A stretch of DNA of 64,000 nucleotides from a bacterium (GTDB taxonomy: Bacteria; Planctomycetota; UBA8108; UBA1146): positions 1,353-65,352 of the forward strand of contig JAPOLY010000005.1 of assembly GCA_029976805.1 (NCBI GenBank), read 5' to 3'. Positions 11,148 to 61,543 of the stretch are shown in pieces. The notes under the pieces were generated by a model that was not told the DNA's origin, made no database searches, and saw nothing but the letters and a program-made list of their open reading frames with translations. The position numbers and the translations under genes are program-made. Position 1 is the stretch's first letter; each line of letters opens with the position of its first letter.

Positions 11148-11230
11148 CAGAAGAAGACATGCGAAGCGAAAGAAACCGATGGGACCTCCAGAACCGAAAA
11201 TCGGGACTTCCCTATTCTACAGGGTGAAAT

Positions 11231-11272: not shown

Positions 11273-11324
11273 CATGTCATGCCGAAGTCACTCGAACCTG
11301 TCAGGCCTGATCAGGGACACAGCA

Positions 11325-14621: not shown

Positions 14622-14970
14622 TTGTGACGTGCTCCTCTGCATGTCGTTTGTCCGGTTACAGACGATCGAGAACAACTCGACCACTACCCTGATCCCGCCC
14701 GTCACACCCCGCTGAAAATTCCTGACGAGGTGCCACCTTCATGAATACTCACAGACGGCATGGTAATACCTTCGCCCATCATACCACTGGTGACACGAAT
14801 GGCACCGGTTCGCATGCTCTGAATGAGATCGGAAATCTGGTGGGGTTAACCCCGATAAAATCCGTCCGTCTCGGTAATTTTGCCATGAAGGTCCTCTTTA
14901 TTCGGCCAATCCTGTCCTCCTGAGGATGCAAGAGGAGCCAGACTGCCAAAACGAGGATCAGGAATTGAAA

Positions 14971-15000
14971 ATCCCCCCGATTCCGAAGAATCGGGGGGAT
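14971..15000 (-). terminator. terminator-like hairpin immediately downstream of tRNA-fMet
   Basis: ATCCCCCCGATTC-TTCG-GAATCGGGGGGAT perfect 13 bp stem. The minus-strand continuation is UUUUCAAUU. Confidence 0.35.
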
Positions 15001-15009
15001 CCGATATTT

Positions 15010-15085
15010 TGGTAGCGGGGGCAGGACTCGAACCTGCGACCTTCGGGTTATGAGCCCGACGAGCTGCCAACTGCTCCACCCCGCG
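15010..15085 (-). tRNA. initiator tRNA-fMet (anticodon CAT)
   Basis: The minus-strand sequence CGCGGGGTGGAGCAGTTGGCAGCTCGTCGGGCTCATAACCCGAAGGTCGCAGGTTCGAGTCCTGCCCCCGCTACCA is nearly identical in architecture to E. coli tRNA-fMet: three G-C pairs closing the anticodon stem, a 1:72 mismatch, and an encoded CCA end. Confidence 0.9.
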
Positions 15086-15180
15086 AAAATTCATTAGGCA
15101 AGAGAGGGAAAGTACGAAATCCGAGAGAGTCGGTCAAGATAACCCGAGAGGAAATCAGCAAAGTTCCAAACCCCGGATCC

Positions 15181-25482: not shown

Positions 25483-25696
25483 TTTCTTCCTTGCTCCTGC
25501 GAGTGAGACTGCGGGTCCACTTCGACAGATGGTCAGCCGATCTCTACACGCCAGAGAATAAACGGAGTTTCCCATTTTGAGTGGGAATCGACTCTCCAGC
25601 AGGCGATTTGTTTCGGCATTTCTACGAGAGTCGGCAGAGCCCGGATTGGGGCCCCTGCACAGGGTCGCAGTGCTCAAGATATCGATTATCGGCACG

Positions 25697-27886: not shown

Positions 27887-28052
27887 AGACAGGTCATCTC
27901 TTGAATCAATTTGTGGCAGAACGGCCACTTTGGAAAAGGGCTTTTTCACTTCCCACAGGGAAGTGATCTTTGATCGGTAAATTTGGCGACTCCGAGATTG
28001 CTGCCGGGGCGGCAACCCGACACACCAAATATGCCGGAATCACAAAAAAACT

Positions 28053-36927: not shown

Positions 36928-38036
36928 AAATTTTTCACCTGTTTTCAAACTACAAATTCACCGGGCCAGCAGACCTTGCACTTTTGTTGGCGAAATCTCA
37001 GCAGAACCTTGGCCACGAGGTCACCTTCTTCTGTGGTAACCCTCCCCTTGGATCTCCCAACCACCTTTCCGAGATTGCCACTGAGCGGGGATTAGATCCC
37101 CGTTCAGACCTGTTCTTGCCGAAGCATTTTCGATTAGGGCAATTTCTGAATGACTTCAAAACCCTCAAGCAACAGATCAAAGAAGAAAAGCCGGACTGGA
37201 TTCATTGCCACCTCCCCAGTGACCACCTCCTGGGTTGCCTGGTAAAAGAACCGCAATCCCCCCCCATCGTCAAAAGCCAATATGATCTGGATCCTGTAAA
37301 AAATTTACGCGGTAGATACTGTCGCTCCCGAACAGATCTGTGGATCACGCCCACCCCATCGGCCACTCGAAATCTGCACTCCTGGAAAATCAGTCAAAAC
37401 CGGATTTTGGAACACCCTCCCATCGTCGATCTCCTTCGCTTCCAACCTGAATCGAAAGAAACCCCGATCGCCAAGGAACAGGATTCGATACACATAGGAG
37501 TCGTGGCCAGAATGCAACATCACCGGCGATTCGCTGAGTTGATTCGGGGCTTCTCACTTGCTGCAAAGGAAAACCCTGCACTGCACCTGCACATACTCGG
37601 ACGCGGAACCCATCAGGACGAAGTTGCAAAAGAGCCTGCCAGACAAAGTGGCTTTACTGATCGTATCCACTTCCCGGGTTATCTGGATTCAGAGCTGTAC
37701 CCCGGTCAACTCGCTCAGATGGATATGCTGATCTTTCTGGTTCCGGGTTCGGATGGAACATGTCGTGCTGCCAGGGAAGCCATGGCCAGTGGAGTTCCGG
37801 TCATCGCCTCCCGACGTGGCTTGCTGCCTGAACTGATTCCGCCCAAGGCGGGACTTCTCCTGGAAAACGACTCACCCGAAGCCATCTCCCGGGCGATCCT
37901 GAAGTTGTCGCAGGAAACCGGGTTGAGAAGAGACCTCGCCGCCGGTGGGCGTGCCTATACCGAGTCTTTTTGCAATGCGGAGACTTTGTCCCACGCACTC
38001 GAGTCAGTGCTTCAGGGCAGAATCAGCACTATTTAG
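36924..38036 (+). CDS. family 4 (GT-B) glycosyltransferase
   Basis: GT1/GT4 C-terminal motif (FPGYLDSELYPGQ...DMLIFLVPGSDGTCRAAREAMASGVPVIASRRGLLPELI). The likely real start is the GTG at 36924 overlapping the upstream TGA (GTGA). The track ORF begins at 36870. Confidence 0.7.
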   Translation: MKIFHLFSNYKFTGPADLALLLAKSQQNLGHEVTFFCGNPPLGSPNHLSEIATERGLDPRSDLFLPKHFRLGQFLNDFKTLKQQIKEEKPDWIHCHLPSDHLLGCLVKEPQSPPIVKSQYDLDPVKNLRGRYCRSRTDLWITPTPSATRNLHSWKISQNRILEHPPIVDLLRFQPESKETPIAKEQDSIHIGVVARMQHHRRFAELIRGFSLAAKENPALHLHILGRGTHQDEVAKEPARQSGFTDRIHFPGYLDSELYPGQLAQMDMLIFLVPGSDGTCRAAREAMASGVPVIASRRGLLPELIPPKAGLLLENDSPEAISRAILKLSQETGLRRDLAAGGRAYTESFCNAETLSHALESVLQGRISTI

Positions 38037-38165
38037 GCAAAAATAGCCTTTTTCAGAGTTTTTCCTACAGATCACCAGTGCATGTGTCGAGGAATCCATT
38101 GGGCGGGAAGGACTCGCCCGTGGCCCCAGTGGCCTTGAAAGGCCTATGGCCAAAACCGAAAGGGT

Positions 38166-38744
38166 ATGGATATGAACAACGTCAACAACGGTCAAATTGC
38201 GACCAACAACATTAATAGTGTGATTTTCCCCACGGCTCGCGTCGTCAGTGGTCTCCTGGGTTTCTATGCCCTGTGCACCATTGCCACCAACTACACCGTG
38301 ACCAACAACTTTGACTTCAACGTGTTCTCCGGAATCGTCGCCATGGCTATGGTGATCTGTTTCTCGGTTTGCACTGCAAGTATGTGGAAGAACGGCTTCC
38401 AGGTCTTCTCTGGCAACGTCGATAACGTTGTTGAGGCCAACACCTTCTGGAACAAGCTTGCCAATGGCTTCATTGTTTCCTGCGTGGTCTTTACCGCTGG
38501 TGCCTTCATTAACAGTGCCGGCAGCTCCAACATCGTCAGCGCCCTGACCCCGGCCTTTTTCCCCTTCTTTATTGGCTTGTGCGCCTACTACACCTGCAAG
38601 ACGGTTGCAGCCGCTTGCGCCACGACCGCCACGGAGTGCACCGTCAATAACAACGCTGATGCTGTGGTGGCTAACAGCGTAAAAAGTGTCATGACTGACA
38701 TGAATGTCATTCAAGATACAAATGCAAAGACCTACACCTCCTGA
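38166..38744 (+). CDS. Cys-rich, Asn-rich tetraspan membrane protein of unknown function (compositionally atypical, own terminator)
   Basis: 192 aa with four hydrophobic helices containing 13 Cys (ALCTIATNY, VICFSVCTASMW, VSCVVFTAG, GLCAYYTCKTVAAACATTATEC). Asn-rich termini. GC content is visibly lower than the flanks. GAAAGGG RBS. Confidence 0.5.
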   Translation: MDMNNVNNGQIATNNINSVIFPTARVVSGLLGFYALCTIATNYTVTNNFDFNVFSGIVAMAMVICFSVCTASMWKNGFQVFSGNVDNVVEANTFWNKLANGFIVSCVVFTAGAFINSAGSSNIVSALTPAFFPFFIGLCAYYTCKTVAAACATTATECTVNNNADAVVANSVKSVMTDMNVIQDTNAKTYTS

Positions 38745-38775
38745 ATCGATACAGAATACAGTTCGTAAACTGCAA

Positions 38776-38812
38776 GCCTGTGGAGACTTACAAGTCTCCA
38801 CAGGCTTTTTTT
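38776..38812 (+). terminator. rho-independent terminator
   Basis: GCCTGTGGAGAC-TTACAA-GTCTCCACAGGC followed by T7. Confidence 0.75.
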
Positions 38813-38863
38813 CGTTGTGGCAGCCTCCACATTCACTCATGGCTGAATAACTTCATGAAGTCA

Positions 38864-38907
38864 TGTGATTTACAATGGTTGAATCACCGACTTTGTAATC
38901 CTATTCT
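38864..38907 (+). promoter_or_regulatory. putative sigma70-like promoter (TTGAAT-N17-TATTCT) overlapped by an inverted repeat GTGATT-N11-AATCAC, upstream of the giant adhesin gene
   Basis: AT-rich island in an otherwise GC-rich region. The hexamers and palindrome were read directly. No experimental support. Confidence 0.25.
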
Positions 38908-39056
38908 TGTGTCGTAACTGTTTTATTAACCCGCCTGATCGTTCAGGCAGGAAGTTTTGATTTATCTCTATGGGAGGTGTGTCCCCTGCACCCGTCAAAA
39001 GTGCACGTGGATTCTTCCATGGAACATGGATTCCCCTATTTTGCCCGGGAGAAGTT

Positions 39057-42000
39057 ATGTCTCAGCTCCTTCGTCATCGCCTTGCCACTTTGCTACTGGC
39101 GATTTTTGTATTGGTAACCGGTGTCTTTTGCAGCGACGTCACAGTTGCTGGTGATGCTGTGTTCGTGGATACCGCCCAAATCAAGGTTTACGGTGCACGC
39201 TCAGACTCAAATCTGGGTAAATCCGTATCCGGTGCCGGTGATGTCAACATGGATGGTTACAAAGACACCATTCTTGGAGCACCGGAAAATGACAACACCT
39301 CGGATGGTCGCAGGGGCCATGCCTACATCGTATTGGGTTCCCCCAATATCGAGACTGAAATCGACCTGAAGAACCCGACACCTGGTACCACGATTAAAAT
39401 CGTCGGTTCACATGCGGGAGACCTTCTCGGTTACTCGGTCTCCGATGCAGGAGACGTCAACGGTGACGGGATTTCCGACTTCCTGATCGGAGCCCCAAAT
39501 TCTTATGGAAGCGGTGGATCGGATGAGGACGGCAATGGACGTGCCTACCTGATCTATGGTTCAGCCAACCTTCCCTCTGTCATCCACGTCGGATCACTGG
39601 GTAGCCTCGGCGTCACCTTTATTGGTGGACAGGAATCGGGTCACTTTGGCTACTCTGTCAGTGGTGCTGGAGACTTCAACTCTGATGGATATGCCGATCT
39701 CCTGATCGGTGCGCCGGATGAGGAGCATGGATCTTCCAACAGCGGTGCCGCATACCTCATCTACGGGGGCATGCTCTCTGGAACCATCGATCTGAAATTC
39801 GGTCACTCTTCTGTGACACGCTTCAAAACCGGTGGCAACAGTGACAATGTCGGTCACTCCGTTGCTGACCTCGAAGACTTCGATGGTGACGGTCACGATG
39901 ACATCGCGATCACCGCCATGCGCCATCCTGACGACGGCGGTATTAACGCCGGACGGGTCTGGGTGGTTTATGGTGGAATGTCCACAGGACCCAACGTCAA
40001 CTTGAACAATCTCTCGGACTACGGTCTTTCCGGCACAAAAATTCGCGTTCCCGATGGTGACCATGAGCTGGGTCAATCTGTCGCTGGAGCAGGGGATGCC
40101 GACAACGACGGTGATTCCGAGATTTTGATCAGCCGTTCCCTTCACGATCAGGATCCCACCACTTTGCAGACGATTGCCTATCTGGTGCGTGGATCCGCTG
40201 ATCGCCCGGCAACGATTCATCTCGGTCAGGGTGGTCCAGGCATCACTGCCTACAAAACCCTTTTCGACAATGATGAAGATGGCCAGACGGTTCACGGTAT
40301 CTATGACCACTCTGGAGATGGCCTTGACGATCACATCGTTGGTATCCCGAGAACCGTGATTCTTGAGCAGGAAAAAGGCAGCGCTCATCGCGTCAATGGT
40401 GGACAGGATCTTGGAGCCAATGAAGTGCTCGATCTTCACCAGCAGGAAGGCAGAGCCTACCTGGGAGTCCATGACAACCAGTCCGTGGGACGTTCCGTGG
40501 GTGGAGTTGGTGATATCAACGACGACCGCGCCAACGACCTCGTCATCGGTGCCCCTGGTGCCAGTCCTTACGGTCGTTTCCGTGCCGGTGTTGCCTACTT
40601 CTTCCTCGGCAAGGAACTCCGTTCACCGAATCAGGTTCAAACCAGTGCAGTCGGTCAGGTTGTGACCGTCACTTGGAACAATCGGGCCGTTTACGACACC
40701 GTTGAGTTGTTCCGTGATGGCATGCTGTTGGCCACACTTCCTGGTGATACTGAAACCTACACCGACTCAAATGTGGCCTACGGGGATCACACCTACAGAG
40801 TCCGCGGAAATCGCAGACACATCACGACCGTTAAAAAGTCGAGCATGATTCGTGTACTGACGCCGATTTCCAACTTCGAGTGCACCTCTCAGGGTCGCAA
40901 TGTGACCCTCGAGTGGCATAACAACGACAACTACTCTTCCACGGATGTCTATCGTGACGGAAACCTGATTGCGACCACTCCAGGTGGCGCCCAGTCTTAC
41001 TCCGATATCGACGTTTCGTATGGCCCCCATACCTACACCCTTGTGTCGCGTGGAGACCGAAGCGAAACCTTGCCGACCCACTGCATGATCAATGTCTTGC
41101 AGCCCCCTTACCTGCCCAGCTGTTTTGCTGAGCCAAACCCGGTCAGCAATGATGTGGAAGCCACCATTAACTGGACCAATGGCCCTGACACGATTTATGA
41201 AAACATCCGTATCTTCCGGGACGATCAGCTTCGCGCCACGATCTCCGGAACAGCGGTCACCTACACAGAAGTGCTTCCCGAGCCGGGAACCTACACCTAC
41301 TCCGTGCAAGGTGTCGATGACTCTGGGCGTGCACTCAGTGACAAGATCTACTGTGAAGTCGTCGATCCGATCGCACCGAAAGCTTTGGAGTGCAGCTCCA
41401 TCGGCCAGATCGCATTCTTCAACTGGGTTAATACCGACGCTTACGACACGATCATCATTGAGTTTGGCCCCGCGGATGGTTCGCAACCTCCGGTGAATCT
41501 GGCCACTCTTGCCGGTAACACCCAGTCCTACCAGACGACTGTGGCTGCCCCGGGTGAGTACACCGTATGTATTCGCGGTGAAAGCCTGATGGATCCCAAC
41601 TCGCCGAACTTCGGTCAGTCCAGCAGGATCTGCTGCACCCTTTCCGTTCCCTACCCTCTGGCAAACCTGACTTCGTCAGCCCAGGGTCAAGTCGTGAATC
41701 TGGAATGGGAAAATGGCGGTGAGTATGACACCATCGAAATCCTTCGGGATGGTCTCTTCCTTGCAAGCATCAGTGGTCACCTGACCAACTACACTGACAA
41801 CGCAGTTCCCTTCGGACTTCGGGAGTACACTCTGAGAGCCAAGCTGCGTCAGGGTGTGACCGACGATATCAGCACCTCTATCACGGTGTTGCGTTCTCCC
41901 GAGAACTTCACCTGCCGTGGTGAAGCAGATCAGGTTCGCCTGAACTGGACCAACCCACTTCCCAGCTACAGCGATATCGACATTTACAGGGATGGGCAGC

Positions 42001-45000
42001 ACCTGACGAGCGTCTCCGGTGACGATATGGAGTACATCGATGCTCCTCTGAGCCCGGGATCCTTCAGTTACTCCATCAAGGCACGTCTTGGAAGCAGCAC
42101 CAGTGATTCTTCCGATTGCGATACGGTGATTCCTGAGCCGATCAACACGGTTGGAACTGGGCTTCTGAATGGTCGCAACGTACTGATCACCTGGGCTAAC
42201 CCGGTGACGGAAGCCACTTCGGTGCGCCTCTTCCGCGATGGCAATGAGATTGCTTCGCTTCCGCCGACCACCACTGCATTCCTTGATCCGGATCTTTTAG
42301 TCGGAACCTACACCTACTGTGTGCGGGCAGAGATTGATGATAACTACAGCAGTCTTTCCTGTGCAGATGCCATCGTCCCGGCTCCGCCGAATGACATCAC
42401 CTGCACTGTTGATAACGCTGTCACCACGGTCACTTGGACCAACGGTGAACTCTACGACAACATCATCATCATGCGTGATGGTGGAACTATCGAAGAAGAA
42501 ATCGCCGGTGATGCCAGTTCTTACGTCGATAACAATCCAGGGCCAGGACCTCACCTTTATCAGGTCTTCGGGCGCATCGGCGACTTCGTCTCCGAAAGCC
42601 TCGACTGCCAGGTCATCGTGCCTTATCCGCCGGCGCAGCTCGTCTGCACTCTGGCGAATGGCACGGATTCGGTCTTGAGTTGGATCAACACCGAGCCTTC
42701 CACAAGCATCCTGATCTACAGGGACGGAGTTCAAATCGCTGAAGTGGCACCGGATGCCGGTGGATACACGGATGCGGGTGTTGCTCCGGCCACCTACACC
42801 TACTGTGTGGTCAATGTCTTTGCCCATGCTCCGGGTTCCAAGACCAGTGCGCCGACCTGCTGCGACCTGGTTGTTCCGGCACCGCCGACCAATCTCACCT
42901 GCCTCTCCGTTTCCGGAGACGTGGAGTTGGCATGGGTCAACAATGATGCCTACGAAACCCTGACCCTGCGTCGTGATGGCAACGTCATTGCGGAGTTGGA
43001 TGGAACCAGCACCTCGTACACCGATCCGCTGGTCACTCCTGGGAATCACATGTACTCCATTGCCGGAACGATCCTGGGCAATACCTCCACTTACGATTCC
43101 TGCATGGAAGATGTGCCTGCAGCGATTACGGACCTCTCCTTGAGTTCCTTCGCTGATACCGTGACTCTCAACTGGAATCACAGTGGACCCGGCGATGAAG
43201 TGGTCATCGCCCGTGACGGCACCGTGATCGCCACTTTGAGCAGCTCTGAGACCACCTACACCGATACGGGCCTTGCTGCCGGTGATTACGAGTACTGCCT
43301 GACGATGACCATCGGTGACGGTACCAGCCCGACCGTTTGCGGATTCATTCACGTTCTTGCAAATCCGAGTGACCTCAGTTGTGTCTCCGCTGCCGGCTTC
43401 GTTAATCTTTCATGGACCAACAACGACGCCTACGACAATCTGGTCATCGAGCGCGATGGAACCTTGCTGGCGATCCTGTCCGGAACAGACACCAGCTACA
43501 CCGACGGCAGCGCCGCGGTGGGCCTGCGTTCCTACACCCTCCGTGGTGAGACCTCGACCAGCATCAGTGGTAATGACAGCTGCACCGTCGACCACTTCCT
43601 TACGGCACCGGGTAACCTCAGTTGCTCCGTGACTGCCGGAGAAGCCGACCTTTCGTGGACCAATGGTGACACCTACGAAAGCATCGTCGTCAGCCGCGAT
43701 GGCACCCTTCTCGAGATTCTTCCGGGAGATGTCACCAGCTACCATGATGCCACCATCGTTTATGGATCCCGTTCCTACTCCCTGGTGGCAACCGGTGGCA
43801 GTATCGAAAGTGATCCGACCAGCTGTGGCCTCGAAGTTCCGGCCATGCCTATGGACCTCGCCTCCAGCACCCTCGACGACACCGTTACCCTGACCTGGAC
43901 CCTTGCGGCACCGGGTGAGGCTCAGACAGTGACACGCGATGGAGCTGTGATCGCCACCATCGGTGGTGGTATGACGATGTTCACCGACACCCCGGGACCG
44001 GGCACCTACGAATACTGTGTGACCAACTCCATCGGCGGCAATACCAGTGCCACTGTGTGTACCGCTGCCAGAGTGCTCGCCAACATGACCGGATTCTCCT
44101 GCAGCTCCGCTGCCGGTCTGGTCACCATCACCTGGACCAACAACGACACCTACGGTGCCCTGTTGCTGGAGCGGGACGGCGAAAAACTGGCCAGCCTCAA
44201 TGGTGATACCAGTTCCTACGTCGATACCACTGCAGATACCGGCAACCACACCTACGAGTTGACTGCTTCTGTGGAGACGGAAAACACCACCAGTGGAACC
44301 TCCACCTGTACCGTGCTTCACGAGTTGGCTCCGGTCTCCGACCTGGCCTGCTCCGTCACCGCCGGTGAAGTCGATCTTTCCTGGAACGTCAACGACACCT
44401 ACGAGTCGATCAGCCTGAGCCGTGACGGTGAGTTCCTCGCCCTTCTCTCCGGAGATGCGACCTCTTACCACGATGCGGACGCGCTGGCCTTTGGTGCTCA
44501 CACCTACTCTCTGGTGGCTGCTGCCGGCTCTATCGAAAGTGATGCGACCAGTTGCACCGTCGAGGTTCCGTCCACTCCCGAGAATCTGGTTTGCACCCTT
44601 TCGAATGGTGCTCAGGTTCAGTTGAGCTGGGATCTTCCGGCTGCCGGCAGTTCCGTCAGCATCTTCCGGGATGGTGCCCTGATCGACACTCTGGGTGGAT
44701 CAGCCACGAGTTACACCGACACTCCGGGTTCGGGGGTCTACACCTACTCCGTAGTCAACAACAGTGCCGACGGTACTTCACCGGCGACCTCTTGTGACAT
44801 CGTCGTTCCGGTGCCGCTGTCCGGCCTCGGTTGCACGACCATCGGTGACGGTAACATTCTCACGTGGACGAATGGTGAAACTTACGACTCCATTGCCGTC
44901 TACCGCAATGGTGAGAAGATCGGTGCCGCCAATGGAGGAACCGAGTCCTTCACCGACTTCCCGCTGGATGCCGGAACCTACGACTACGACCTGATCGCCA

Positions 45001-45569
45001 GCATCGGTACCTCCGAGACGGCTCCGGTCTCTTGCTCTGTCACGATCCTGCCGCCACCGATCAATCTTGCGTGCACTTTCTACGGTGCACCGATCAACCT
45101 GAACTGGGTCAACACTGCCAACTACACGACGATTCACATCGAGCGTAACGGGGTACTTCTGGCCTCGATTTCCGGCAATGCCACCCAGTACCAGGACATC
45201 GTTCCGGTGGAAGGTGACTACAGCTACGTGATCTATGGTGAGCATGCCGACGGTGTCACCACCTCGACCACCTGCTCCGGATACGTCAAGCGCTTCCTCA
45301 GGGGTGATGCCAACAGCGACACCAACTGCGATATCGCTGACGGTATCTGGGTCCTGAACTGGCTCTTCATCGGAGGACAGGAGCCGACCTGTTACGACTC
45401 CGCGGACTTCGACGATAACGGACTCGTCACCATTGGCGACGCCATGCTGATGATCTTCTACTACCTGCACGCTGAGGGTATGCCGAGCATGCCTCCCGCG
45501 AACAACTACCCGGAGCCGGGTCTCGACCCGACCGACGACACTCTCGACTGTATTGATTCGCCCTACTAG
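39057..45569 (+). CDS. giant secreted adhesin-like protein: 7 FG-GAP repeats (integrin-alpha-type beta-propeller), ~19 tandem ~88 aa Ig/FN3-like domains, C-terminal RGD-dockerin-like/Cys-tail module
   Basis: Signal peptide MSQLLRHRLATLLLAIFVLVTGVFCSDVTVAG. FG-GAP motifs (GDVNMDGYKDTILGAP, GDVNGDGISDFLIGAP, GDFNSDGYADLLIGAP, GDINDDRANDLVIGAP ...). Repeated domain consensus L.W.N...YD.I.I.RDG..IA.L.G..TSYTD.....G.H.Y.L. The C-terminus is FLRGDANSDTNCDIADGIWVLNWLFIGG...DFDDNGLVTIGDAMLMIFYYL...LDPTDDTLDC. Confidence 0.85.
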   Translation: MSQLLRHRLATLLLAIFVLVTGVFCSDVTVAGDAVFVDTAQIKVYGARSDSNLGKSVSGAGDVNMDGYKDTILGAPENDNTSDGRRGHAYIVLGSPNIETEIDLKNPTPGTTIKIVGSHAGDLLGYSVSDAGDVNGDGISDFLIGAPNSYGSGGSDEDGNGRAYLIYGSANLPSVIHVGSLGSLGVTFIGGQESGHFGYSVSGAGDFNSDGYADLLIGAPDEEHGSSNSGAAYLIYGGMLSGTIDLKFGHSSVTRFKTGGNSDNVGHSVADLEDFDGDGHDDIAITAMRHPDDGGINAGRVWVVYGGMSTGPNVNLNNLSDYGLSGTKIRVPDGDHELGQSVAGAGDADNDGDSEILISRSLHDQDPTTLQTIAYLVRGSADRPATIHLGQGGPGITAYKTLFDNDEDGQTVHGIYDHSGDGLDDHIVGIPRTVILEQEKGSAHRVNGGQDLGANEVLDLHQQEGRAYLGVHDNQSVGRSVGGVGDINDDRANDLVIGAPGASPYGRFRAGVAYFFLGKELRSPNQVQTSAVGQVVTVTWNNRAVYDTVELFRDGMLLATLPGDTETYTDSNVAYGDHTYRVRGNRRHITTVKKSSMIRVLTPISNFECTSQGRNVTLEWHNNDNYSSTDVYRDGNLIATTPGGAQSYSDIDVSYGPHTYTLVSRGDRSETLPTHCMINVLQPPYLPSCFAEPNPVSNDVEATINWTNGPDTIYENIRIFRDDQLRATISGTAVTYTEVLPEPGTYTYSVQGVDDSGRALSDKIYCEVVDPIAPKALECSSIGQIAFFNWVNTDAYDTIIIEFGPADGSQPPVNLATLAGNTQSYQTTVAAPGEYTVCIRGESLMDPNSPNFGQSSRICCTLSVPYPLANLTSSAQGQVVNLEWENGGEYDTIEILRDGLFLASISGHLTNYTDNAVPFGLREYTLRAKLRQGVTDDISTSITVLRSPENFTCRGEADQVRLNWTNPLPSYSDIDIYRDGQHLTSVSGDDMEYIDAPLSPGSFSYSIKARLGSSTSDSSDCDTVIPEPINTVGTGLLNGRNVLITWANPVTEATSVRLFRDGNEIASLPPTTTAFLDPDLLVGTYTYCVRAEIDDNYSSLSCADAIVPAPPNDITCTVDNAVTTVTWTNGELYDNIIIMRDGGTIEEEIAGDASSYVDNNPGPGPHLYQVFGRIGDFVSESLDCQVIVPYPPAQLVCTLANGTDSVLSWINTEPSTSILIYRDGVQIAEVAPDAGGYTDAGVAPATYTYCVVNVFAHAPGSKTSAPTCCDLVVPAPPTNLTCLSVSGDVELAWVNNDAYETLTLRRDGNVIAELDGTSTSYTDPLVTPGNHMYSIAGTILGNTSTYDSCMEDVPAAITDLSLSSFADTVTLNWNHSGPGDEVVIARDGTVIATLSSSETTYTDTGLAAGDYEYCLTMTIGDGTSPTVCGFIHVLANPSDLSCVSAAGFVNLSWTNNDAYDNLVIERDGTLLAILSGTDTSYTDGSAAVGLRSYTLRGETSTSISGNDSCTVDHFLTAPGNLSCSVTAGEADLSWTNGDTYESIVVSRDGTLLEILPGDVTSYHDATIVYGSRSYSLVATGGSIESDPTSCGLEVPAMPMDLASSTLDDTVTLTWTLAAPGEAQTVTRDGAVIATIGGGMTMFTDTPGPGTYEYCVTNSIGGNTSATVCTAARVLANMTGFSCSSAAGLVTITWTNNDTYGALLLERDGEKLASLNGDTSSYVDTTADTGNHTYELTASVETENTTSGTSTCTVLHELAPVSDLACSVTAGEVDLSWNVNDTYESISLSRDGEFLALLSGDATSYHDADALAFGAHTYSLVAAAGSIESDATSCTVEVPSTPENLVCTLSNGAQVQLSWDLPAAGSSVSIFRDGALIDTLGGSATSYTDTPGSGVYTYSVVNNSADGTSPATSCDIVVPVPLSGLGCTTIGDGNILTWTNGETYDSIAVYRNGEKIGAANGGTESFTDFPLDAGTYDYDLIASIGTSETAPVSCSVTILPPPINLACTFYGAPINLNWVNTANYTTIHIERNGVLLASISGNATQYQDIVPVEGDYSYVIYGEHADGVTTSTTCSGYVKRFLRGDANSDTNCDIADGIWVLNWLFIGGQEPTCYDSADFDDNGLVTIGDAMLMIFYYLHAEGMPSMPPANNYPEPGLDPTDDTLDCIDSPY

Positions 45570-45595
45570 GCCTTCATCCCGTTGAGATCTTGTCA

Positions 45596-45636
45596 AATCC
45601 CCCCGCCGTATTGAGACGGCGGGGGGATTTTTTTTG
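45596..45636 (+). terminator. rho-independent terminator
   Basis: ATCCCCCCGCCGT-loop-ACGGCGGGGGGAT followed by T8. Confidence 0.75.
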
Positions 45637-45788
45637 CGTCCTCAACCGGTTCAATCCAACCTATCGGGGTGCCGGATTCCGGCTCTCAGGTTATGCTTAT
45701 TTCCGAGGGCAGGGCATGGCCAGCAGGTCTCTTCAGACCCTCAGTCAGAACTTCGAAACATCGCCTGAAACTGCATTGAAAGCGGCAA

Positions 45789-46199
45789 ATGATCACCGGA
45801 ACCGGCATACCCACTGGAACGGAAGAACGAGCACCAGGATCCTATGGACCCGTCTGCTCCCAGTGTCCCGTTCGCTCCGGTTGCCTCAAAATCTGTGATC
45901 TGGTCGAAAATGTGATCCCCAGCATGGAGAAAGGGCGGGTCGACGCTGAGGACCTCCCTCGCCTGTATATGGGGATTCGTACCGTGAATGTTCTCCTCGA
46001 AAACACCCACCTGCTGACTGACCGGCAGCAGCAAGTTGTCCAGCTTTACTATCGTGAAGCCATGCAGCAGCAGGAAATTGCCCAACGCCTGAAAGTCACT
46101 CAACAGGCTGTGGCAGATGCCCTGGTCCGTGCTCGTCGAGCTGTGGGAAAACACTTTGGCAACCGCGAACTCGCCCGCAACACTCGCTCTGGAACCTGA
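45789..46199 (+). CDS. small regulator: 4-Cys cluster plus sigma-70 region-4-type HTH (no region 2)
   Basis: CSQCPVRSGCLKIC (CxxC...CxxxC), followed by LTDRQQQVVQLYYREAMQQQEIAQRLKVTQQAVADALVRARRAV, which matches sigma-70 region 4.2 / LuxR-like HTH. The start is uncertain (weak RBS). Confidence 0.45.
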   Translation: MITGTGIPTGTEERAPGSYGPVCSQCPVRSGCLKICDLVENVIPSMEKGRVDAEDLPRLYMGIRTVNVLLENTHLLTDRQQQVVQLYYREAMQQQEIAQRLKVTQQAVADALVRARRAVGKHFGNRELARNTRSGT

Positions 46200-46596
46200 T
46201 CTGGCGGCTTTTTCAGGTTAAAGGCCTGATTTCGGCAAGTTTTCCCTGAGTTCAGGCAAGCCCCCCCACTCACTTCCTGTGCCGATTGACACCGGTCCTT
46301 CCCCGGCTAGAATTAAAGATCGGTACCACTGTCAGAGTGAACAAAGTGATTCTCAGGTCTTGAGTCTCCCCAATTTTGGCCCGGTGTCTTCTTTTCAGAG
46401 AAGGTCATTCGTATCCACTGGGGAAACATGTTCAGACCCGGTTCCGGTAACCAACCTGCGGAGAATCCGGTTCGCTTCCGACTGTATTCACCATTTTTCG
46501 TCGGGTGAGCCCAATCCCGACCTTTTCCGCTCCGAACCCTGAGTGGTTCGCATGCGGGGCCTCCCATGAGGTAATTCTCGAGGAAAGAGTGTTCAC

Positions 46597-48747
46597 ATGT
46601 TGCACACCAAAGATTCGATTATCGGTCTTCGATCTTCCGAATTTGCGACCATGAACCGTTGGCTACTGCTGGCGCTGATCCTGATCGTCGGTTCGGTGCA
46701 AAACCAGGCCTCGGCACAGGTGTTCTGTGATCCTGCCAATCCGACTTACGGAACCTGCTTTCTGCAGACAGGAACATTCAGCGGTGACCTTCCCTTTGCG
46801 GTGACCCTGATCCCTGCCACCAACGATCTTTACGTGGCGGATTATCTCAGTGGTGTTTTCTACCGCTACGACGCTCTTGACCTCGCCGCAGCGGCAGAAA
46901 ACTTGGCCTGCCCCAAAGGCCCTGCCACCTACCTCGGGATGGCTTTTTCTGTTCTCGACAACAACCTTTACTGGATCGTCAATGATCAGGGAAGCCTGCT
47001 GCTGGTGGTCTCCAGCCTTGGAGGAAGCTTCATCTCTGAAACCGAGTTGACTCCTCCTTCCGGAACGACCGCCCTCTCGGGACTGACCTGGTTCCCGTCA
47101 ACAAATACTCTTTGGACCAATGACTTTGAAAATGATCAGTACCTCGAGATGAACATGGACGGTTCCTTCACCGGAAACTCCTTCGGAAACCCCCAATCCT
47201 CGGGAGCTGCAGGCGCCTTTGGACTGGGACTTTCGGTCGCTCAGGACATCCTTACTTTTGAGTTCTTCTTTGACCTCCCGGTCGGCCCACCTTCTGCAAA
47301 CCGCACAAGCCTGGTCGAGCGTGTCAATTCGAACGGTGAATCCCAGGGCCTCTCATTCCCGCTGGCCAGCATCAATAACCTGAGTGGCTGGATCACCGGA
47401 ATCGCCTGGGCTCCCCAGGGTTCTGCTGCGGAATCCCCCAGTAACTTCCTCCTCGATCTCACCAATCGGGTGATCGTCGAGGTTCCGGTTCCCAACCCGC
47501 CCGCCCCTTCCATAACCTCTGTCGATTGCACCGCTGACAGCTCCAACGATGTCACTCTCAGCTGGACCAATCCCCTCGCCTACGATCAGGTTGAGATCTT
47601 CAGGGACGGAACCCTGATCTCCACCCTCGGCCCTGGAGGCGATACGTTCCTGGACGAGGATCTCGAGCCGGGGAGCTACAGTTACGAAGTCGTTCCCTTC
47701 CCTGCAGGAGCCAGTTCCGGATTGCCTGCCGCAACATGTGAGCTGGTAGTCGGGTTCGGCAGGCTTCTGGGAGAGGTGGCTCACTCCGGAACTGCACCGG
47801 GTGGCGCAGACGTCATCGAATCAACGAATCAGTTGATCGTTGCCGATTCCAGTGGACTGACCGCATGGTTCTACCAGAAAGACCTCACCCCTCTCTCCAC
47901 CAGCATCCCGGGCCCTTACAGCAGTGCCCAATCCCTCGCTGGTATCGCCGCCGATGGCGACGACAATTTGGCTTGGCTGACGGAGAGCGGAGATCTGAGA
48001 ATCACCGACTTGAGTGGAACCGAAACAGCGGCATTCGCTCTGGCCCTGAACCCCGGCGCCGTTTTGGGTGGCCTGACCTGGTCTGCTCAGATGGAAAGCT
48101 GGCTGACAGTCAACCTTGCTGAGGGTCTGATCCTGAAAATCAATACCGACGGTACTCTCGAAGAAGTCCCCGCTGCACTTCCCACAGGAATGTCTGCGGC
48201 CTCCTTCTTCGGCGGAATCGCCTCCCGTGCAGGTTCCACCAATGTCTATGATCTGGCATTCGGAGCCCTCAACAGTGGCGGTGTCACTCGCCTCGAAAGA
48301 TTCGTGGGGAATACCCCGGTCGGACTGGGATTCGATCTCACGCCCAGCGTCAACTCCGGAGATATTCGTGGGCTCGCAGCCACTGCGAACGGGCCCTTCA
48401 ACTTCCCGGTGACCTACGTGGTCGGTCGCGACTCTGGAACCATCACCATGCTCTCTGGAGATCTCAGTGGTACCGGATCAGACTTCGTTCGCGGGGACGC
48501 GGTGGCAGATGGATCCCTGAACCTTCTCGATGCCACCGAAATGCTGCTTCAACTTTTCCAGTTACAGGACAGCCTTTGCCTCGATTCACTCGACGCCAAT
48601 GACGATGGAGCTTTCAACATTGCGGATCCCCTGCTCCTGCTGGACTACCTTTTCTCCGGCGGCACTCCGATTTCCGATCCTTCGGGAGTGTGTGGAGAAG
48701 ATCCGACGGTCGACAATCTGACCTGCCAGGAGTTCCCCGGCTGCTAA
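46597..48747 (+). CDS. secreted protein with one Ig/FN3-like domain of the giant-protein repeat type and the C-terminal RGD-dockerin-like/Cys-tail module
   Basis: GAGGAAAGAG RBS. Long signal peptide (...MNRWLLLALILIVGSVQNQASAQ). Internal domain VTLSWTNPLAYDQVEIFRDGTLISTLGPGGDTFLDEDLEPGSYSYEV. C-terminus FVRGDAVADGSLNLLDATEMLLQLF...DANDDGAFNIADPLLLLDYLFSGG...CGEDPTVDNLTCQEFPGC. Confidence 0.7.
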   Translation: MLHTKDSIIGLRSSEFATMNRWLLLALILIVGSVQNQASAQVFCDPANPTYGTCFLQTGTFSGDLPFAVTLIPATNDLYVADYLSGVFYRYDALDLAAAAENLACPKGPATYLGMAFSVLDNNLYWIVNDQGSLLLVVSSLGGSFISETELTPPSGTTALSGLTWFPSTNTLWTNDFENDQYLEMNMDGSFTGNSFGNPQSSGAAGAFGLGLSVAQDILTFEFFFDLPVGPPSANRTSLVERVNSNGESQGLSFPLASINNLSGWITGIAWAPQGSAAESPSNFLLDLTNRVIVEVPVPNPPAPSITSVDCTADSSNDVTLSWTNPLAYDQVEIFRDGTLISTLGPGGDTFLDEDLEPGSYSYEVVPFPAGASSGLPAATCELVVGFGRLLGEVAHSGTAPGGADVIESTNQLIVADSSGLTAWFYQKDLTPLSTSIPGPYSSAQSLAGIAADGDDNLAWLTESGDLRITDLSGTETAAFALALNPGAVLGGLTWSAQMESWLTVNLAEGLILKINTDGTLEEVPAALPTGMSAASFFGGIASRAGSTNVYDLAFGALNSGGVTRLERFVGNTPVGLGFDLTPSVNSGDIRGLAATANGPFNFPVTYVVGRDSGTITMLSGDLSGTGSDFVRGDAVADGSLNLLDATEMLLQLFQLQDSLCLDSLDANDDGAFNIADPLLLLDYLFSGGTPISDPSGVCGEDPTVDNLTCQEFPGC

Positions 48748-48765
48748 TATTGCGATCGCTGACGA

Positions 48766-48804
48766 AAAAAGCCCCTCTCCGGGTCACCGGAGAGGGGCTT
48801 TTTT
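48766..48804. terminator. rho-independent terminator (bidirectional)
   Basis: AAGCCCCTCTCCGG-GTCA-CCGGAGAGGGGCTT followed by T8. An A-run precedes it on the opposite strand. Confidence 0.75.
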
Positions 48805-48820
48805 TTGGGCTCTTTCCCCC

Positions 48821-49837
48821 TCAGGGAAGAAGCGATTCGACCAGCAAGGGAAGTGAAACATCATAGCGATACTGGATCGAGGAATGATCGTCATCAAACT
48901 CCTCATACCGATGATCGATCCCATGATTCTCCAACCTTGAGGCCATGATTCTGGCTCCATGGTGCAAGCGATATTGATCACGGAAACCGCAGTCCAGGTA
49001 CAACAGGTTCAGGGATTTCAGGGACTCTGCATGTCGGGAGACCATCTCTACCGGATCCCACCGAAGCCAGTTCTGCCAGCGTTTTTCGATCAACTCTCCG
49101 GTCTTCGGATCAAAGGGCAGCTGGATTCGTTCCGGGTTATCCGTATCAGGGTCATAGAATGCACAGAGAGCCAAGGTCATCAGCGTCATGATGTCACTGC
49201 CACGATACTTGACCTTTCCGCTGATCTTTTTGAGGAACGCTGCGGGGTCACCATCAAATCGTCTCAAGGTATCGACGGCCGGGGGAAAATCGGGCACACA
49301 TGCATAGGGAAAATAAAGATCCCCACTATGGCAGGCGATGCTCCCCCAAACGTCTGCATGCATCATCCCATGGACCAGTGCGCCGTAGCCTCCCGAAGAA
49401 AATCCGAAGAGCCCCCGGTGGTTGCGTCCAGGGAGAGTACGGAAATGCTGATCAATCCACGGAACCAATTCTTGCGTCAGGTAACTCGCCCACGGGCCCA
49501 CTGCCGGGGAGTCGATGTATTGGTTTCCACCCAGAGCAGTAAATCCATCAGGCATGACGACGATCGCTGGTTTCATTTCACCAGTACCCACAAGTCGATC
49601 GAGACGCTCCGGAAGGTTTTCGTTGAAGCCGTCCCAATTGAGCGATTTCAGACCACTGGAAGTATAGGCAGCAAGATAAACCAGAACCGGATAACGATCC
49701 GGCGTCTCCCCGTATCCCGGAGGAGTCCAGACGGCGACTTTTCGGTCACAAGAATCGCCCCGTGGATTGTTCGACAGCAATTCTGAGTGATGCTCCCTCA
49801 CTTCAACACTTCCGCGTTGCCCATCATATTTGAGCAC
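48821..49837 (-). CDS. alpha/beta-hydrolase esterase (enterochelin-esterase / S-formylglutathione-hydrolase-like 'putative esterase' family)
   Basis: GFSSGG nucleophile-elbow motif (GLFGFSSGGYGAL), the conserved acid and His regions. GTG start. Confidence 0.6.
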   Translation of the reverse strand: MLKYDGQRGSVEVREHHSELLSNNPRGDSCDRKVAVWTPPGYGETPDRYPVLVYLAAYTSSGLKSLNWDGFNENLPERLDRLVGTGEMKPAIVVMPDGFTALGGNQYIDSPAVGPWASYLTQELVPWIDQHFRTLPGRNHRGLFGFSSGGYGALVHGMMHADVWGSIACHSGDLYFPYACVPDFPPAVDTLRRFDGDPAAFLKKISGKVKYRGSDIMTLMTLALCAFYDPDTDNPERIQLPFDPKTGELIEKRWQNWLRWDPVEMVSRHAESLKSLNLLYLDCGFRDQYRLHHGARIMASRLENHGIDHRYEEFDDDHSSIQYRYDVSLPLLVESLLP

Positions 49838-57204: not shown

Positions 57205-58437
57205 TTGAAGCTGAATACACCTGCTACGCCGACCCAACGAACCTCTTCTGGCGGCCTTTGCCAGTCACTGATCGGTTTGCTGATTCTGGTTCTGAGTGGC
57301 TGCGGTGGTGGGCCGGACCCTCGTACTGAACCCGTCAATCCGATCCCTCTTGTCGAATTTGAATCTTTGCTGCAACGGGGAAAAACCTATCAGGCACGGG
57401 CACTGATCGAACCCTTCGCCAGCCCGGAGCAAGCGAACAGCATCCGCGGTATCGCCAGACTCGGCCTCGGTCGATGTGATCTGGCCGACAAGCGCTACGA
57501 GGACAGCCTGCTGCATTTGGACAAGGCCAGACGGCTATTGCCACCGGGACCGGATCAGGCGCAGGCACGATTCTATTTGGGGGTCGCCTATCTGCGCACC
57601 AAATCGGTGATGAGCGCTCTGAATCATCTGGAGGCAGCGTTTGCAGGGGTCAGTAACAGCGATCTGAAGAAACGATCCGCCTATCTGATCGTTCGGACTC
57701 AGGATGAGTTGGGAGATCCTGTCTCCACTCTTTATCGCGAAGCTTCCGCCGGAACCTATTACAGTGAATATTCCGGAATCTGGTCGCAACCGGCCCCGGT
57801 TGTCGCCCAACCTCCCGTCGAGACGACACCACGGGAGATCACTCCCAAACCGGAGGTACGCCGACTTACCCCACCACCACTACGCCTGCTGAAACGACAG
57901 CAATGGAACGCTCGACCGGTTCGAATTTCCTCGGTCAATCCGATGAGTCGGCCCTTCCGCATCACCGTTCACCACACTGCCGATCAGGAGAGCCTCTCCT
58001 CCATCAGTCAGAGTGATCCCCGTGAATACCTGAAAATTCTTCAGCGTCACTGTCAGAACAATCTTGACTGGGGAGACCTTGGATATCACTTCCTGATCAG
58101 CAAGGACGGTCGAATCTGGGAGGGGCGGCCGATGAAATACCAGGGAGCCCATGCGGGAAATCCCACACTCAACAGGGGAAACATCGGTATCGCCCTCATA
58201 GGCAATTTCGATCACACCAAGCCGAGTACCGCACAGGTCCGCAGCCTCCAAAATCTTCTGGCCAGCCTCTGTGACCTGTACCGGATCCAGCCTTCAAAGA
58301 TCTTTGGCCATGGCGACCTCAAAACCACCGGTTGCCCGGGCAGACACTTGAGTTCCATTCTCCGCGAGCTGGTGCGCAAACTCGAAAACAGTCACCTGTC
58401 ACGTCGAAAAGACAGATTTGATTCAAAATCCCGCTGA
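57205..58437 (+). CDS. lipoprotein N-acetylmuramoyl-L-alanine amidase (Amidase_2/PGRP fold) with N-terminal TPR-like region
   Basis: Lipobox LVLSGCGG. C-terminal amidase_2 motifs (ITVHHTAD, GYHFLISKDGRIWEGR, GAHAGNPTLNRGNIGIALIGNF, GHGDLKTTGCPG). Confidence 0.75.
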   Translation: MKLNTPATPTQRTSSGGLCQSLIGLLILVLSGCGGGPDPRTEPVNPIPLVEFESLLQRGKTYQARALIEPFASPEQANSIRGIARLGLGRCDLADKRYEDSLLHLDKARRLLPPGPDQAQARFYLGVAYLRTKSVMSALNHLEAAFAGVSNSDLKKRSAYLIVRTQDELGDPVSTLYREASAGTYYSEYSGIWSQPAPVVAQPPVETTPREITPKPEVRRLTPPPLRLLKRQQWNARPVRISSVNPMSRPFRITVHHTADQESLSSISQSDPREYLKILQRHCQNNLDWGDLGYHFLISKDGRIWEGRPMKYQGAHAGNPTLNRGNIGIALIGNFDHTKPSTAQVRSLQNLLASLCDLYRIQPSKIFGHGDLKTTGCPGRHLSSILRELVRKLENSHLSRRKDRFDSKSR

Positions 58438-60493: not shown

Positions 60494-61543
60494 ATGAATC
60501 CACCCAACATCAAAGTTGATCTCCGCTCCGATACGGTCACCCATCCGACAGAGGAGATGCTCGAGGCGATGAGAACCGCCCCCCTCGGAGACGATGTCAT
60601 GGGTGAAGACCCGACCATCAATCTTCTGGAAGAGGAAAGTGCTCAACTGCTCGGCAAGGAAGCAGCCATCTTCGTCCCCTCCGGAACCATGGCCAACAGC
60701 ATCGCCATTGGAGCCCAGACCCGACCCGGTGATGAAATCCTGCTCATGGAAGACAGTCATATCTTTCTTTATGAAGCGGGAGGATCCTCCCGCCTGTGGG
60801 GTGTTCATCCACGTCCCATCTCTTCAACCGATGGCTGTCTCACTGCTGAGGACATCGACTCCCGGATTCGCCCCGATGATCCCCACCAACCGATCACTTC
60901 AATGGTCTGCCTTGAAAATACGCACAACATGGCAGGTGGAATTGTCGTCTCCCCGGAACAGATGGCACCCGTGATTGCGACGGCCAAAAAGCACTCATTG
61001 CGATTGCATCTGGATGGTGCCCGTCTTTTTCATGCTCAGGCAGCCCTCGGTATCCCCGCTTCCGACTTGGTGAAAGACTTCGATTCCATTTCCTTCTGTC
61101 TGTCAAAAGGTCTTTCATGCCCCGTCGGTTCCATCCTGTGTGGTGACCAGAAGACGATTGCGGAAGCTCACCGACTGCGCAAACTGCTCGGAGGTGGAAT
61201 GCGTCAGGCTGGAGTGTTGGCGGCAGCAGGCCGGGTGGCTCTGGCAGAGAGTGTTCCACGCCTCAAGGATGATCATCGAAGATGTCAGATTCTTGCAGAG
61301 GGTCTCGCAAACTTGCCGGGAATCGAGGTCTCCCCGAACCCCACCCATTCGAATATCGTTTTCATTCGCAAGGCGGGTTCGACTGCAGAGGACTACGACC
61401 GACACCAGACCTCCCTCGAGGAACGGGGCGTCCAGGTCTTCAGTATCGGCCCTCGGGGCTTACGGGCGGTGGTTCACCGTCAAATCGACGATGTGGCGAT
61501 AGAACGTGCCCTGGAGGCTTTTTCAGCCGAATTTCAGTCCTGA
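60494..61543 (+). CDS. ltaE: low-specificity L-threonine aldolase
   Basis: DLRSDTVT N-terminus, PLP-lysine region, and overall Beta_elim_lyase/threonine aldolase similarity. Confidence 0.8.

Follow-up and report, generated by a model that had tools for sequence, protein, structure and literature searches.

A conserved Cys4-HTH gene and neighbouring genes for exported proteins with a dockerin-like C-terminal domain in an uncultured planctomycetal lineage

In a 64,000-nt stretch of DNA from a bacterium of the Planctomycetota (assembly GCA_029976805.1, contig JAPOLY010000005.1, positions 1,353 to 65,352), hereafter called the window, we analysed four consecutive genes that encode a 192-aa membrane protein, a giant protein of FG-GAP repeats and fibronectin type III-like (FN3-like) modules, a 136-aa protein in which a four-cysteine motif precedes a helix-turn-helix (HTH), hereafter the Cys4-HTH protein, and a 716-aa protein with two predicted propellers. 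Their domain content, repeat number, promoters, terminators and conserved adjacency could be observed directly, and the locus is real and well delimited. The best explanation, to which as a whole we assign a probability of about 55%, is that in an uncultured marine Planctomycetota lineage the locus is a chromosomal neighbourhood passed on by vertical descent, in which a putatively locally regulated set of exported binding proteins is tagged with a common dockerin-like C-terminal domain (CTD). The conserved core would then consist of the small cytoplasmic Cys4-HTH protein together with adjacent genes for Sec-exported CTD proteins, where the partners appear to be non-enzymatic binding proteins built from propellers, FN3-like, PKD or cupredoxin-like domains, all ending in the CTD of about 92 aa with its double calcium loop. 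The slot upstream of the Cys4-HTH gene seems to be variable and is here occupied by the giant, while the constant partner downstream would be the 716-aa protein.

To follow this adjacency, the four proteins were compared with 51 species-level loci, all of them from marine or other uncultured Planctomycetota metagenome-assembled genomes (MAGs), and iterated profiles were run over all open reading frames (ORFs) of these loci. The loci fall into four architectures along with the identity of their Cys4-HTH protein. In group A (at least 64% identical), the order is a glycosyltransferase gene of the GT4 type, the 192-aa gene, the giant gene, the Cys4-HTH gene, the 716-aa gene and an esterase gene, and the housekeeping flanks (glycosyltransferases, esterase, M3 peptidase, cyclophilins) are kept as well, so that the conservation within this group is plain synteny. 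In group B (57-64%; L036, L038, L040), the GT4 and esterase genes are kept, the giant and the 192-aa gene are absent, and the slot holds another CTD protein, namely a PKD and CTD protein in L038 and L040 and a 276-aa dockerin-scoring protein on the opposite strand in L036. Group C (50-59%) has two to three small CTD genes, one of them cupredoxin-like, divergent from the Cys4-HTH gene, with a 716-aa homologue after it and otherwise different flanks; group D (46-53%; L052, L053, L055, L056, L058-L060, L063) has a single CTD gene of 365-405 aa divergent from a Cys4-HTH gene whose product takes a form of about 110 aa, and no 716-aa homologue. Altogether the giant and the 192-aa gene are absent at identities of 64% or below (L036 and more distant loci), and the giant-less relatives retain either the Cys4-HTH gene with a 716-aa homologue or the Cys4-HTH gene with other CTD proteins. 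As a separate observation, a conserved series of four genes lies convergent to the Cys4-HTH gene of group D; it encodes proteins of 180 aa, about 615 aa (PilM/GspL-like), about 410 aa and about 670 aa (GspK-like) and resembles genes for type II secretion or pilus assembly.

A gene of the 716-aa family lies directly after the Cys4-HTH gene in every group A or group B locus with enough downstream sequence, and the same pairing is found in twelve distant loci with other flanks (L011, L037, L041, L042, L044-L048, L050, L054, L062). The 716-aa protein is the most constant partner of the Cys4-HTH protein, and it is supported that the linkage of the two genes exceeds general synteny by far. An original prediction for this region had taken the four genes as linked and the Cys4-HTH gene as an orphan regulator embedded among adhesin genes; the comparison confirms the linkage for the Cys4-HTH and 716-aa genes, it does not show the four genes as one conserved unit, and it reveals the supposed orphan as the most conserved element of the neighbourhood rather than an insertion into it. 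Moreover, the CTD genes are concentrated around the Cys4-HTH gene, as counted by their nearest edge in the 29 loci with the most divergent Cys4-HTH proteins (46-64% identity): on the upstream side there are 24 in 41 kb within 1.5 kb (0.59 per kb), falling to 0.20 per kb at 1.5-3 kb and 0.07 per kb at 3-4.5 kb; on the downstream side there are 13 in 39 kb within 1.5 kb (0.33 per kb); and at 6-10 kb on both sides there are 0 in about 108 kb. Over the 51 loci, with their four architectures, the density within 1.5 kb comes to 0.3-0.7 per kb, against 0 at 6-10 kb. The association of the Cys4-HTH gene with CTD genes is thus strong but non-exclusive.

The same counts bear on the alternative that the adjacency has no function, the Cys4-HTH protein being general or autoregulatory and the CTD genes being its neighbours by inherited gene order in a CTD-rich clade. 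Such a scenario agrees with the origin of all loci from one phylum and their relatedness, with CTD genes elsewhere in the window, with the failure to find a common operator, and with distant Cys4-HTH members that stand in unrelated contexts on short contigs beside a LexA/CI-like repressor. However, the adjacency outlasts four rearranged architectures, changes of orientation and a complete turnover of the flanks, and the CTD genes drop sharply to zero beyond 6 kb, and we consider a functionless adjacency unlikely.

The reading of a locally regulated, CTD-tagged set depends next on the tag itself, which the original prediction had overlooked. The last 92 or so residues of the giant and of the 716-aa protein are one common domain, whose consensus in the iterated local profile is F.RGDANSDGKLDISDAI.LLNYLF.G....C.DAADVNDDG..NIADAI.LL.YLF.GG..P..P...CG.DPT.D.L.C. 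This consensus contains two loops of the form D-x-N/D-x-D-G..(D/N)I.D, each followed by a helix ending in LL.YLF, which is the duplicated arrangement of EF-hand-like Ca-binding loop and helix known from type I dockerins. The family profile matches the solved dockerins 2y3n_B (the best, at 9.4e-5), 2b59_B and 1daq, and some homologous tails score at or near the Dockerin_1 cut-off (24.0 bits in L046, 23.6 in L044 and 22.6 in L036).

As for the Cys4-HTH protein, it carries C-x2-C-x5-C-x3-C at residues 23-36, followed by a conserved LPSME.GRVD.EDLPRLY segment and then by the HTH of about 50 aa, where Sigma70_r4 matches residues 76-118 with E = 6e-9 and both Sigma70_r4_2 and UPF0122 likewise score above their Pfam cut-offs. 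Sigma region 2 gave no match in this protein, the 75 residues ahead of region 4 being those that hold the Cys4 motif, and it is therefore not a sigma factor; TIGR02937 reaches 34.3 bits against a cut-off of 42.9. The earlier description of a protein with a four-cysteine cluster and a region-4 HTH only is hence borne out. Among solved structures, the UPF0122 proteins 1s7o and 1xsv and sigma region 4 come closest to it, and the HTH fold, which AlphaFold2 (AF2) models with a per-residue confidence (pLDDT) of about 90, superposes on 1s7o and on region 4 of SigD, SigE and SigL. None of the 23 distant family members sampled lacks any of the four cysteines, and the site is probably metal-binding; its spacing presumably resembles the central motif of SPASM-type Fe-S domains. 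A zinc-binding anti-sigma (ZAS) domain was considered and rejected, because its H-x3-C-x2-C pattern is missing, no conserved His stands before the motif and no anti-sigma family matched. In a HMMER scan of 1.84 billion representative proteins, the family comprises 120 clusters at E <= 1e-10. Per genome record the gene was found once, including in a 9.2-Mb chromosome. None of the libraries has a model of the Cys4 module or of the LPSME.GRVD.EDLPRLY segment, and our literature search found no description of the family; neither the Cys4-HTH family nor its conserved, putatively functional coupling to CTD genes has been described before. In view of the HTH fold, the single copy and the tight adjacency that resists rearrangement, local transcriptional regulation would be the most likely role of this protein.

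Two further observations concern the wider family. Proteins of about 700-2850 aa (P0116, P0125, P0128, P0187 and others) match the HTH profile in 5-9 separate stretches, which suggests that they consist of region-4-like HTH units arrayed in tandem. Besides, distant Cys4-HTH members (P0117 type, E = 1e-23 with the family profile) are found on three short metagenome contigs of 1-2.8 kb (L067-L069), where the neighbours are a LexA/CI-like S24 repressor, a metallophosphoesterase and an ATPase-like ORF, with no CTD genes on these three, a sample too small for a general statement; the wider family may also occur in mobile-element-like contexts.

A different role is conceivable, in which the 136-aa protein is a YlxM-like export accessory, or a mimic of RNA polymerase or sigma region 4, and serves the targeting of large secreted proteins or competes with sigma factors. 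In fact its best matches in both sequence and structure are the UPF0122/YlxM proteins 1s7o and 1xsv, the Pfam UPF0122 cut-off is passed (35.5 vs 22.7 bits), all neighbouring partner genes encode proteins with signal peptides, and in group D it is convergent to the PilM/GspL-like and GspK-like genes; moreover, YlxM of Streptococcus mutans binds Ffh and the RNA of the signal recognition particle (PMC8546722). Yet the UPF0122 match covers the HTH part alone, at profile positions 15-61 of 101, the NCBIfam YlxM equivalog NF045758 gives 39.5 bits, below its 80-bit cut-off, no ffh or ftsY gene is adjacent in the parts of this and the related loci that were examined, and the HTH matches sigma region 4 equally well. 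YlxM is not known to have a Cys4 module. For these reasons we regard an export or mimicry role as rather improbable.

Returning to local regulation of the CTD genes, the transcription signals of the locus deserve attention. Rho-independent terminators, recognised as a GC-rich hairpin at the 3' end of a gene with a U-tract directly behind it, are present at three sites (Table 1). Behind the giant gene, the position of the hairpin is kept in relatives though the stem sequences differ, as seen in the alignment upstream of the Cys4-HTH gene, and the third terminator is bordered by an A-run and a U-run and is probably bidirectional. After the Cys4-HTH gene, the following stretch shows no significant structure (z = 0.2), and between the GT4 and 192-aa genes no terminator was found; accordingly, of the four units once thought to end each in a strong terminator of its own, three strong terminators stand and the Cys4-HTH gene has none. 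The giant-gene promoter escaped a consensus promoter scan and was read from the sequence and the alignment, where CTTG and TAT.CTTG are kept in 15 of 15 aligned related loci and the flanks diverge; it falls within the promoter interval 38864-38907 proposed earlier, which is thereby upheld. The promoter of the 716-aa gene is near consensus (11/12 positions), and of the 21 distinct group A intergenic sequences compared, 19 have exactly its two hexamers and the other two have TAAAAT, while most loci more distant than group A have TTGAC[A/T]-16/17-TATACT. It is followed by a leader of about 280 nt, corresponding to about 110-530 nt in relatives, in which a small hairpin stands just 5' of the conserved CGAGGAAAGA ribosome-binding region and recurs with different stems (leaders including L016-L036). 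The leader alignment is too divergent for a reliable consensus structure, and the short hairpin alone recurs, which may be a translational or stability element. A search of Rfam at a permissive threshold over 37500-49500 gave weak matches to the terminator hairpins only and none to this leader. Upstream of the Cys4-HTH gene, no clear shared promoter or operator could be seen in the alignment of relatives.

The 716-aa protein is exported and has an FN3-like module between two predicted beta-propellers, in addition to the CTD. Its AF2 model has a mean pLDDT of 75, where the first beta domain lies mostly at about 85-95 and the second at about 85-94 up to residue 520, dropping to about 63-85 over the last third, and the FN3-like module is modelled as all-beta. 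With this model, Foldseek retrieves tandem propellers such as LRP6, Sevenless and ROS1 (E = 1e-13 to 1e-17). No catalytic domain was detected in the protein, and all of its homologues are annotated as hypothetical protein. The module, whose presence as one further copy had been noticed before, is confirmed with E = 1.3e-15 against the module profile. It had also been read as a sign of domain exchange with the giant; however, it occurs in the 716-aa orthologues of giant-less lineages too and is only 19-39% identical to the copies of the giant, so that it is ancestral, and a recent exchange between the two proteins was rejected.

For the giant protein, the start merits a remark. The longest ORF begins at 38970, which had led to a length of 2199 aa, but the conserved GGGAGAAG ribosome-binding site, the signal peptide and the gene calls, which chose 39057 in all MAGs, make the latter start and a protein of 2170 aa most likely. 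Behind the signal peptide, Pfam FG-GAP (PF01839) matches with E = 1.4e-26 (92.3 bits, cut-off 22.1), and the sequence displays the D-x-D/N-x-D-G repeat seven times, readable as GD.N.DG..D motifs; the proposed integrin-alpha-like head of seven blades is thus supported in its family and its repeat number, and the closed 7-bladed propeller would follow from these. Then come exactly 19 tandem modules (domain E-values 1e-23 to 1e-36, pairwise identity 21-62%) with the consensus L.C....V.L.W.N...Y..I.I.RDG..IA.L.G..TSYTD.....G.Y.Y. The number 19 agrees with the former estimate, in which they were immunoglobulin domains of 88 aa; they are about 83 aa long, and a profile of 20 modules matches the solved FN3-like chains 2w1n (1e-4), 3mpc (4e-4) and Tencon (5e-3), which suggests FN3-like modules rather than Ig. 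Pfam fn3 gave no match to the modules, RGI_lyase beta-sheet-domain models matched weakly in 5 of the 20, and in the Pfam scan no model covers the module family. Among the giant orthologues (including L012, L024, L027), the copy number varies from 18 to 21 and the length from 2086 to 2411 aa, which means that the module array grows and shrinks between species. The adhesin character assigned to these proteins from the beginning is supported insofar as they are exported, modular proteins of a binding type.

The 192-aa protein is the lineage-specific companion of the giant and is always found with it. Four hydrophobic segments are seen by hydropathy, Asn makes up 13% with Asn-rich stretches at both ends, and 8 Cys are counted, of which 6 are invariant in the family; the former picture of an Asn-rich tetraspan protein is therefore right except for its 13 cysteines. 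The family, with 13 homologues at 42-96% identity and the invariant motifs PTARV..G.LGF.ALCTIATNY and FPF, is confined to this lineage, the order GT4, 192-aa gene and giant is invariable wherever it occurs, and a profile search of Pfam, NCBIfam and PDB gave no match. Neither this protein nor the Cys4-HTH protein has a housekeeping homologue, in keeping with what had been expected of the two small proteins. Since no terminator follows GT4, the 192-aa gene could just as well close the operon of overlapping glycosyltransferase genes that precedes it. A lower GC content had been invoked for its horizontal acquisition; in the GC profile the gene has 0.511 against 0.50-0.53 in the upstream genes and its GC at third codon positions (GC3), 0.70, is the highest of the region, so that there is no compositional sign of acquisition and this origin was rejected on the GC and GC3 values.

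These results also bear on the scenario in which the four genes, each transcribed independently and two of them embedded orphan regulators, form a self-contained adhesion island acquired horizontally. Three strong terminators and two conserved promoters do divide the region into separate units, and the giant and the 192-aa gene occur either together, in group A only, or not at all, with other genes in the slot of sister lineages, so that this pair could be a lineage-specific insertion; however, the neighbourhood is syntenic with its housekeeping flanks down to about 64% identity of the Cys4-HTH protein, the 192-aa gene does not deviate in composition, no integrase, tRNA or repeat boundary turned up nearby (no search was aimed at these), and the Cys4-HTH and 716-aa genes persist without the giant and the 192-aa gene, the former without a terminator of its own. 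As a four-gene unit the island is largely refuted, and as an explanation it is the least probable of those considered: the whole region is syntenic at 64% or above and the giant and the 192-aa gene are absent beyond. The giant and the 192-aa protein are instead a lineage-specific occupant of the variable slot. The original prediction is largely right as an observation, including the four consecutive plus-strand ORFs found at their positions, and is not right in its reading of island, horizontal transfer and orphan regulators.

Table 1. Features of the locus and of related genes in the window (window coordinates).
Feature	Position	Strand	Description
192-aa gene	38166-38744	+	four-segment membrane protein; 190 aa if begun at Met3
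Terminator after 192-aa gene	38774-38807 (to 38814)	+	15-bp stem and U-tract; dG -27.4 kcal/mol, z -6.9
Giant-gene promoter	38879-38907	+	TTGAAT-17-TATTCT, sigma-70-like
Giant gene	39057-45569	+	2170 aa; signal peptide, FG-GAP region, 19 FN3-like modules, dockerin-like CTD
FG-GAP region	39234-40616	+	seven Ca-loop-type repeats
Module array	40629-45299	+	19 tandem FN3-like modules of about 83 aa
Giant CTD	45279-45566	+	iterated local profile E = 2.6e-31; Dockerin_1 17.3 bits
Terminator after giant gene	45595-45630 (to 45638)	+	hairpin and U-tract; dG -30.7 kcal/mol, z -5.5
136-aa (Cys4-HTH) gene	45789-46199	+	Cys4 motif and sigma-70 region-4 / YlxM-like HTH
Cys4 motif	45855-45896	+	C-x2-C-x5-C-x3-C
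HTH	46014-46142	+	sigma-70 region-4 / YlxM-like
716-aa-gene promoter	46286-46313	+	TTGACA-16-TAGAAT, sigma-70-like, near-consensus
716-aa-gene 5' leader	46320-46596	+	about 280 nt
716-aa gene	46597-48747	+	exported protein: signal peptide, propeller, FN3-like module, propeller, CTD
First beta-propeller	46744-47496	+	part of 716-aa protein (predicted)
FN3-like module	47512-47754	+	part of 716-aa protein
Second beta-propeller	47764-48456	+	part of 716-aa protein (predicted)
716-aa CTD	48469-48744	+	dockerin-like
Terminator after 716-aa gene	48766-48797		between convergent 716-aa and esterase genes; dG -36.2 kcal/mol, z -7.7
Esterase gene	48821-49837	minus	downstream flank, convergent to 716-aa gene
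CTD gene	4581-6692	minus	703-aa PKD protein
CTD gene	8562-11147	minus	861-aa propeller-like protein
CTD gene	11325-14705	minus	1126-aa protein, one FN3-like module
Upstream flank			DUF502, Kdo-type kinase, MqnA-like gene, GT2, GT4
Further downstream flank			M3 peptidase, two cyclophilins

As a mechanism for the locally regulated set, we suppose that the CTD would tether or sort the proteins at the cell surface, where the giant, if each module has the usual FN3 length of about 3.5 nm, may stand out as a stalk that very roughly measures 60-70 nm and bears the FG-GAP head at its far end. The Cys4-HTH protein would bind DNA and tune the transcription of the flanking CTD genes, more likely as a repressor or modulator than as an activator because the promoter of the 716-aa gene is near consensus, and its Cys4 site, binding Zn or an Fe-S cluster, may sense redox or metal status. 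We might go further and imagine the Cys4-HTH protein as a dedicated metal- or redox-sensing controller (or YlxM-like export accessory) of planctomycetal surface display, with the CTD, a hitherto undescribed dockerin derivative with a Cys extension, as the tag by which a varying set of propeller, FN3-like, PKD and cupredoxin-like binding proteins is sorted or anchored, and the giant as only one lineage-specific cargo; this is a tentative view, which we put forward with considerable doubt.

Several points weigh against the explanation by a locally regulated, CTD-tagged set. The role of the 136-aa protein as a regulator of the CTD genes, together with its DNA binding, its metal binding and the surface location of the CTD proteins, is something we infer from sequence, and the AF2 model of the Cys region (pLDDT below 50) is unreliable. 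No operator shared by the giant-gene and 716-aa-gene promoters was found in the promoter alignments. The loci compared are phylogenetically related, so that the counts are not independent events, and four loci with enough sequence have no CTD gene adjacent to the Cys4-HTH gene (L057/L009, L043, L051, L061). In the window itself three more CTD genes lie on the minus strand at 4581-14705, about 31 kb from the Cys4-HTH gene, which means that CTD genes are not restricted to its neighbourhood. The cut-off of Dockerin type I PF00404 (22.9 bits) is reached neither by the tail of the giant (17.3) nor by that of the 716-aa protein (19.5), and no cohesin turned up among the proteins scanned, which covered part of the window and the 10-kb flanks of the related loci (no genome-wide cohesin search was made).

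The genes flanking the locus are ordinary in kind (Table 1), and identical 136-aa and 192-aa proteins recur across many NCBI MAGs labelled Planctomycetota, which together with the origin of the 51 loci identifies the source as an uncultured marine planctomycete. Some other genes of the window are worth recording. At 21019-22047 on the plus strand, a divergent actin-like protein of 342 aa is encoded, with MreB_Mbl matching at only 1.5e-19, Salactin at 4e-16 and Volactin as well; nearby are genes for a secretin (22996-25743, minus), a HEAT-repeat protein and a CHAT-domain protein (25697-28015, minus). Beside this secretin no type II secretion operon was found, the neighbours being aminotransferase, DUF1015, cyclase-like, actin-like and HEAT-repeat proteins. 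Furthermore, in L011 genes for an Amidase_2 protein and a beta-eliminating lyase stand after the pair of Cys4-HTH and 716-aa genes (13581-16836), and the same two families occur in the window at 57205-58437 and 60494-61543, 8-12 kb downstream of the pair, which is a remnant of long-range synteny, the genes in between having been lost.

In the marine plankton, Planctomycetota are an abundant and uncultured group, and little is understood of how they adhere to particles or capture polymers. The locus provides for them a widely conserved set of genes for exported proteins that can be recognised by their C-terminal tag, a candidate regulator in single copy whose Cys4 module no model describes, and two conserved promoters. 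If the CTD indeed serves to sort or anchor proteins, the surface proteome could be predicted from sequence in these organisms; if the link is non-functional, the gain is that the annotation of a large adhesin-like gene and the genes around it has been corrected.

Among known systems, the closest published concept is the planctosome, a hypothetical cohesin/dockerin complex of freshwater Planctomycetes (Nemodlikiaceae) with cohesins and peptidase cargo (PMC6461901), which belongs with the non-cellulosomal dockerin-bearing surface proteins. Common to the planctosome and the present locus are signal-peptide proteins of about 2000 aa, repeated beta-sandwich modules, modules of cohesin/dockerin type, the lack of carbohydrate-active enzyme domains and the occurrence in planktonic Planctomycetota. 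The differences are that no cohesin was found among the proteins scanned here and no peptidase cargo, that the tails in the window stay below the Pfam dockerin cut-off, and that the CTD has an extra conserved Cys-containing extension (..CG.DPT.D.L.C); a link to a Cys4-HTH gene is absent from the planctosome paper (PMC6461901). With stand-alone sigma-70 region 4, UPF0122 (YlxM) and GerE-type HTH proteins, the Cys4-HTH protein shares an HTH of about 50 aa and the same fold, and unlike them it has an invariant N-terminal Cys4 module and the LPSME.GRVD.EDLPRLY segment, stays below the YlxM cut-off and has no ffh neighbour. The 716-aa protein, with two predicted propellers and an FN3-like module between them, resembles the YWTD/NHL-like tandem propeller ectodomains of LRP6 and Sevenless/ROS1, a likeness of fold only (8-16% identity, whole-chain TM 0.2-0.3), and differs in being bacterial and in its dockerin-like tail. 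Finally, the giant is like the integrin-alpha-type FG-GAP/FN3 giant adhesins in its Ca-loop head of 7 repeats, its about 19 beta-sandwich modules and its signal peptide, and like giant bacterial adhesins in being a single large gene with its own promoter and terminator. Unlike in these adhesins, its anchor would be the dockerin-like CTD and not an LPXTG, type I secretion RTX (T1SS-RTX), autotransporter or type IX secretion (T9SS) signal, and its repeat family lies outside every Pfam model. With its dockerin-like tail, the giant is a new member among the surface proteins of the FG-GAP/FN3 type.

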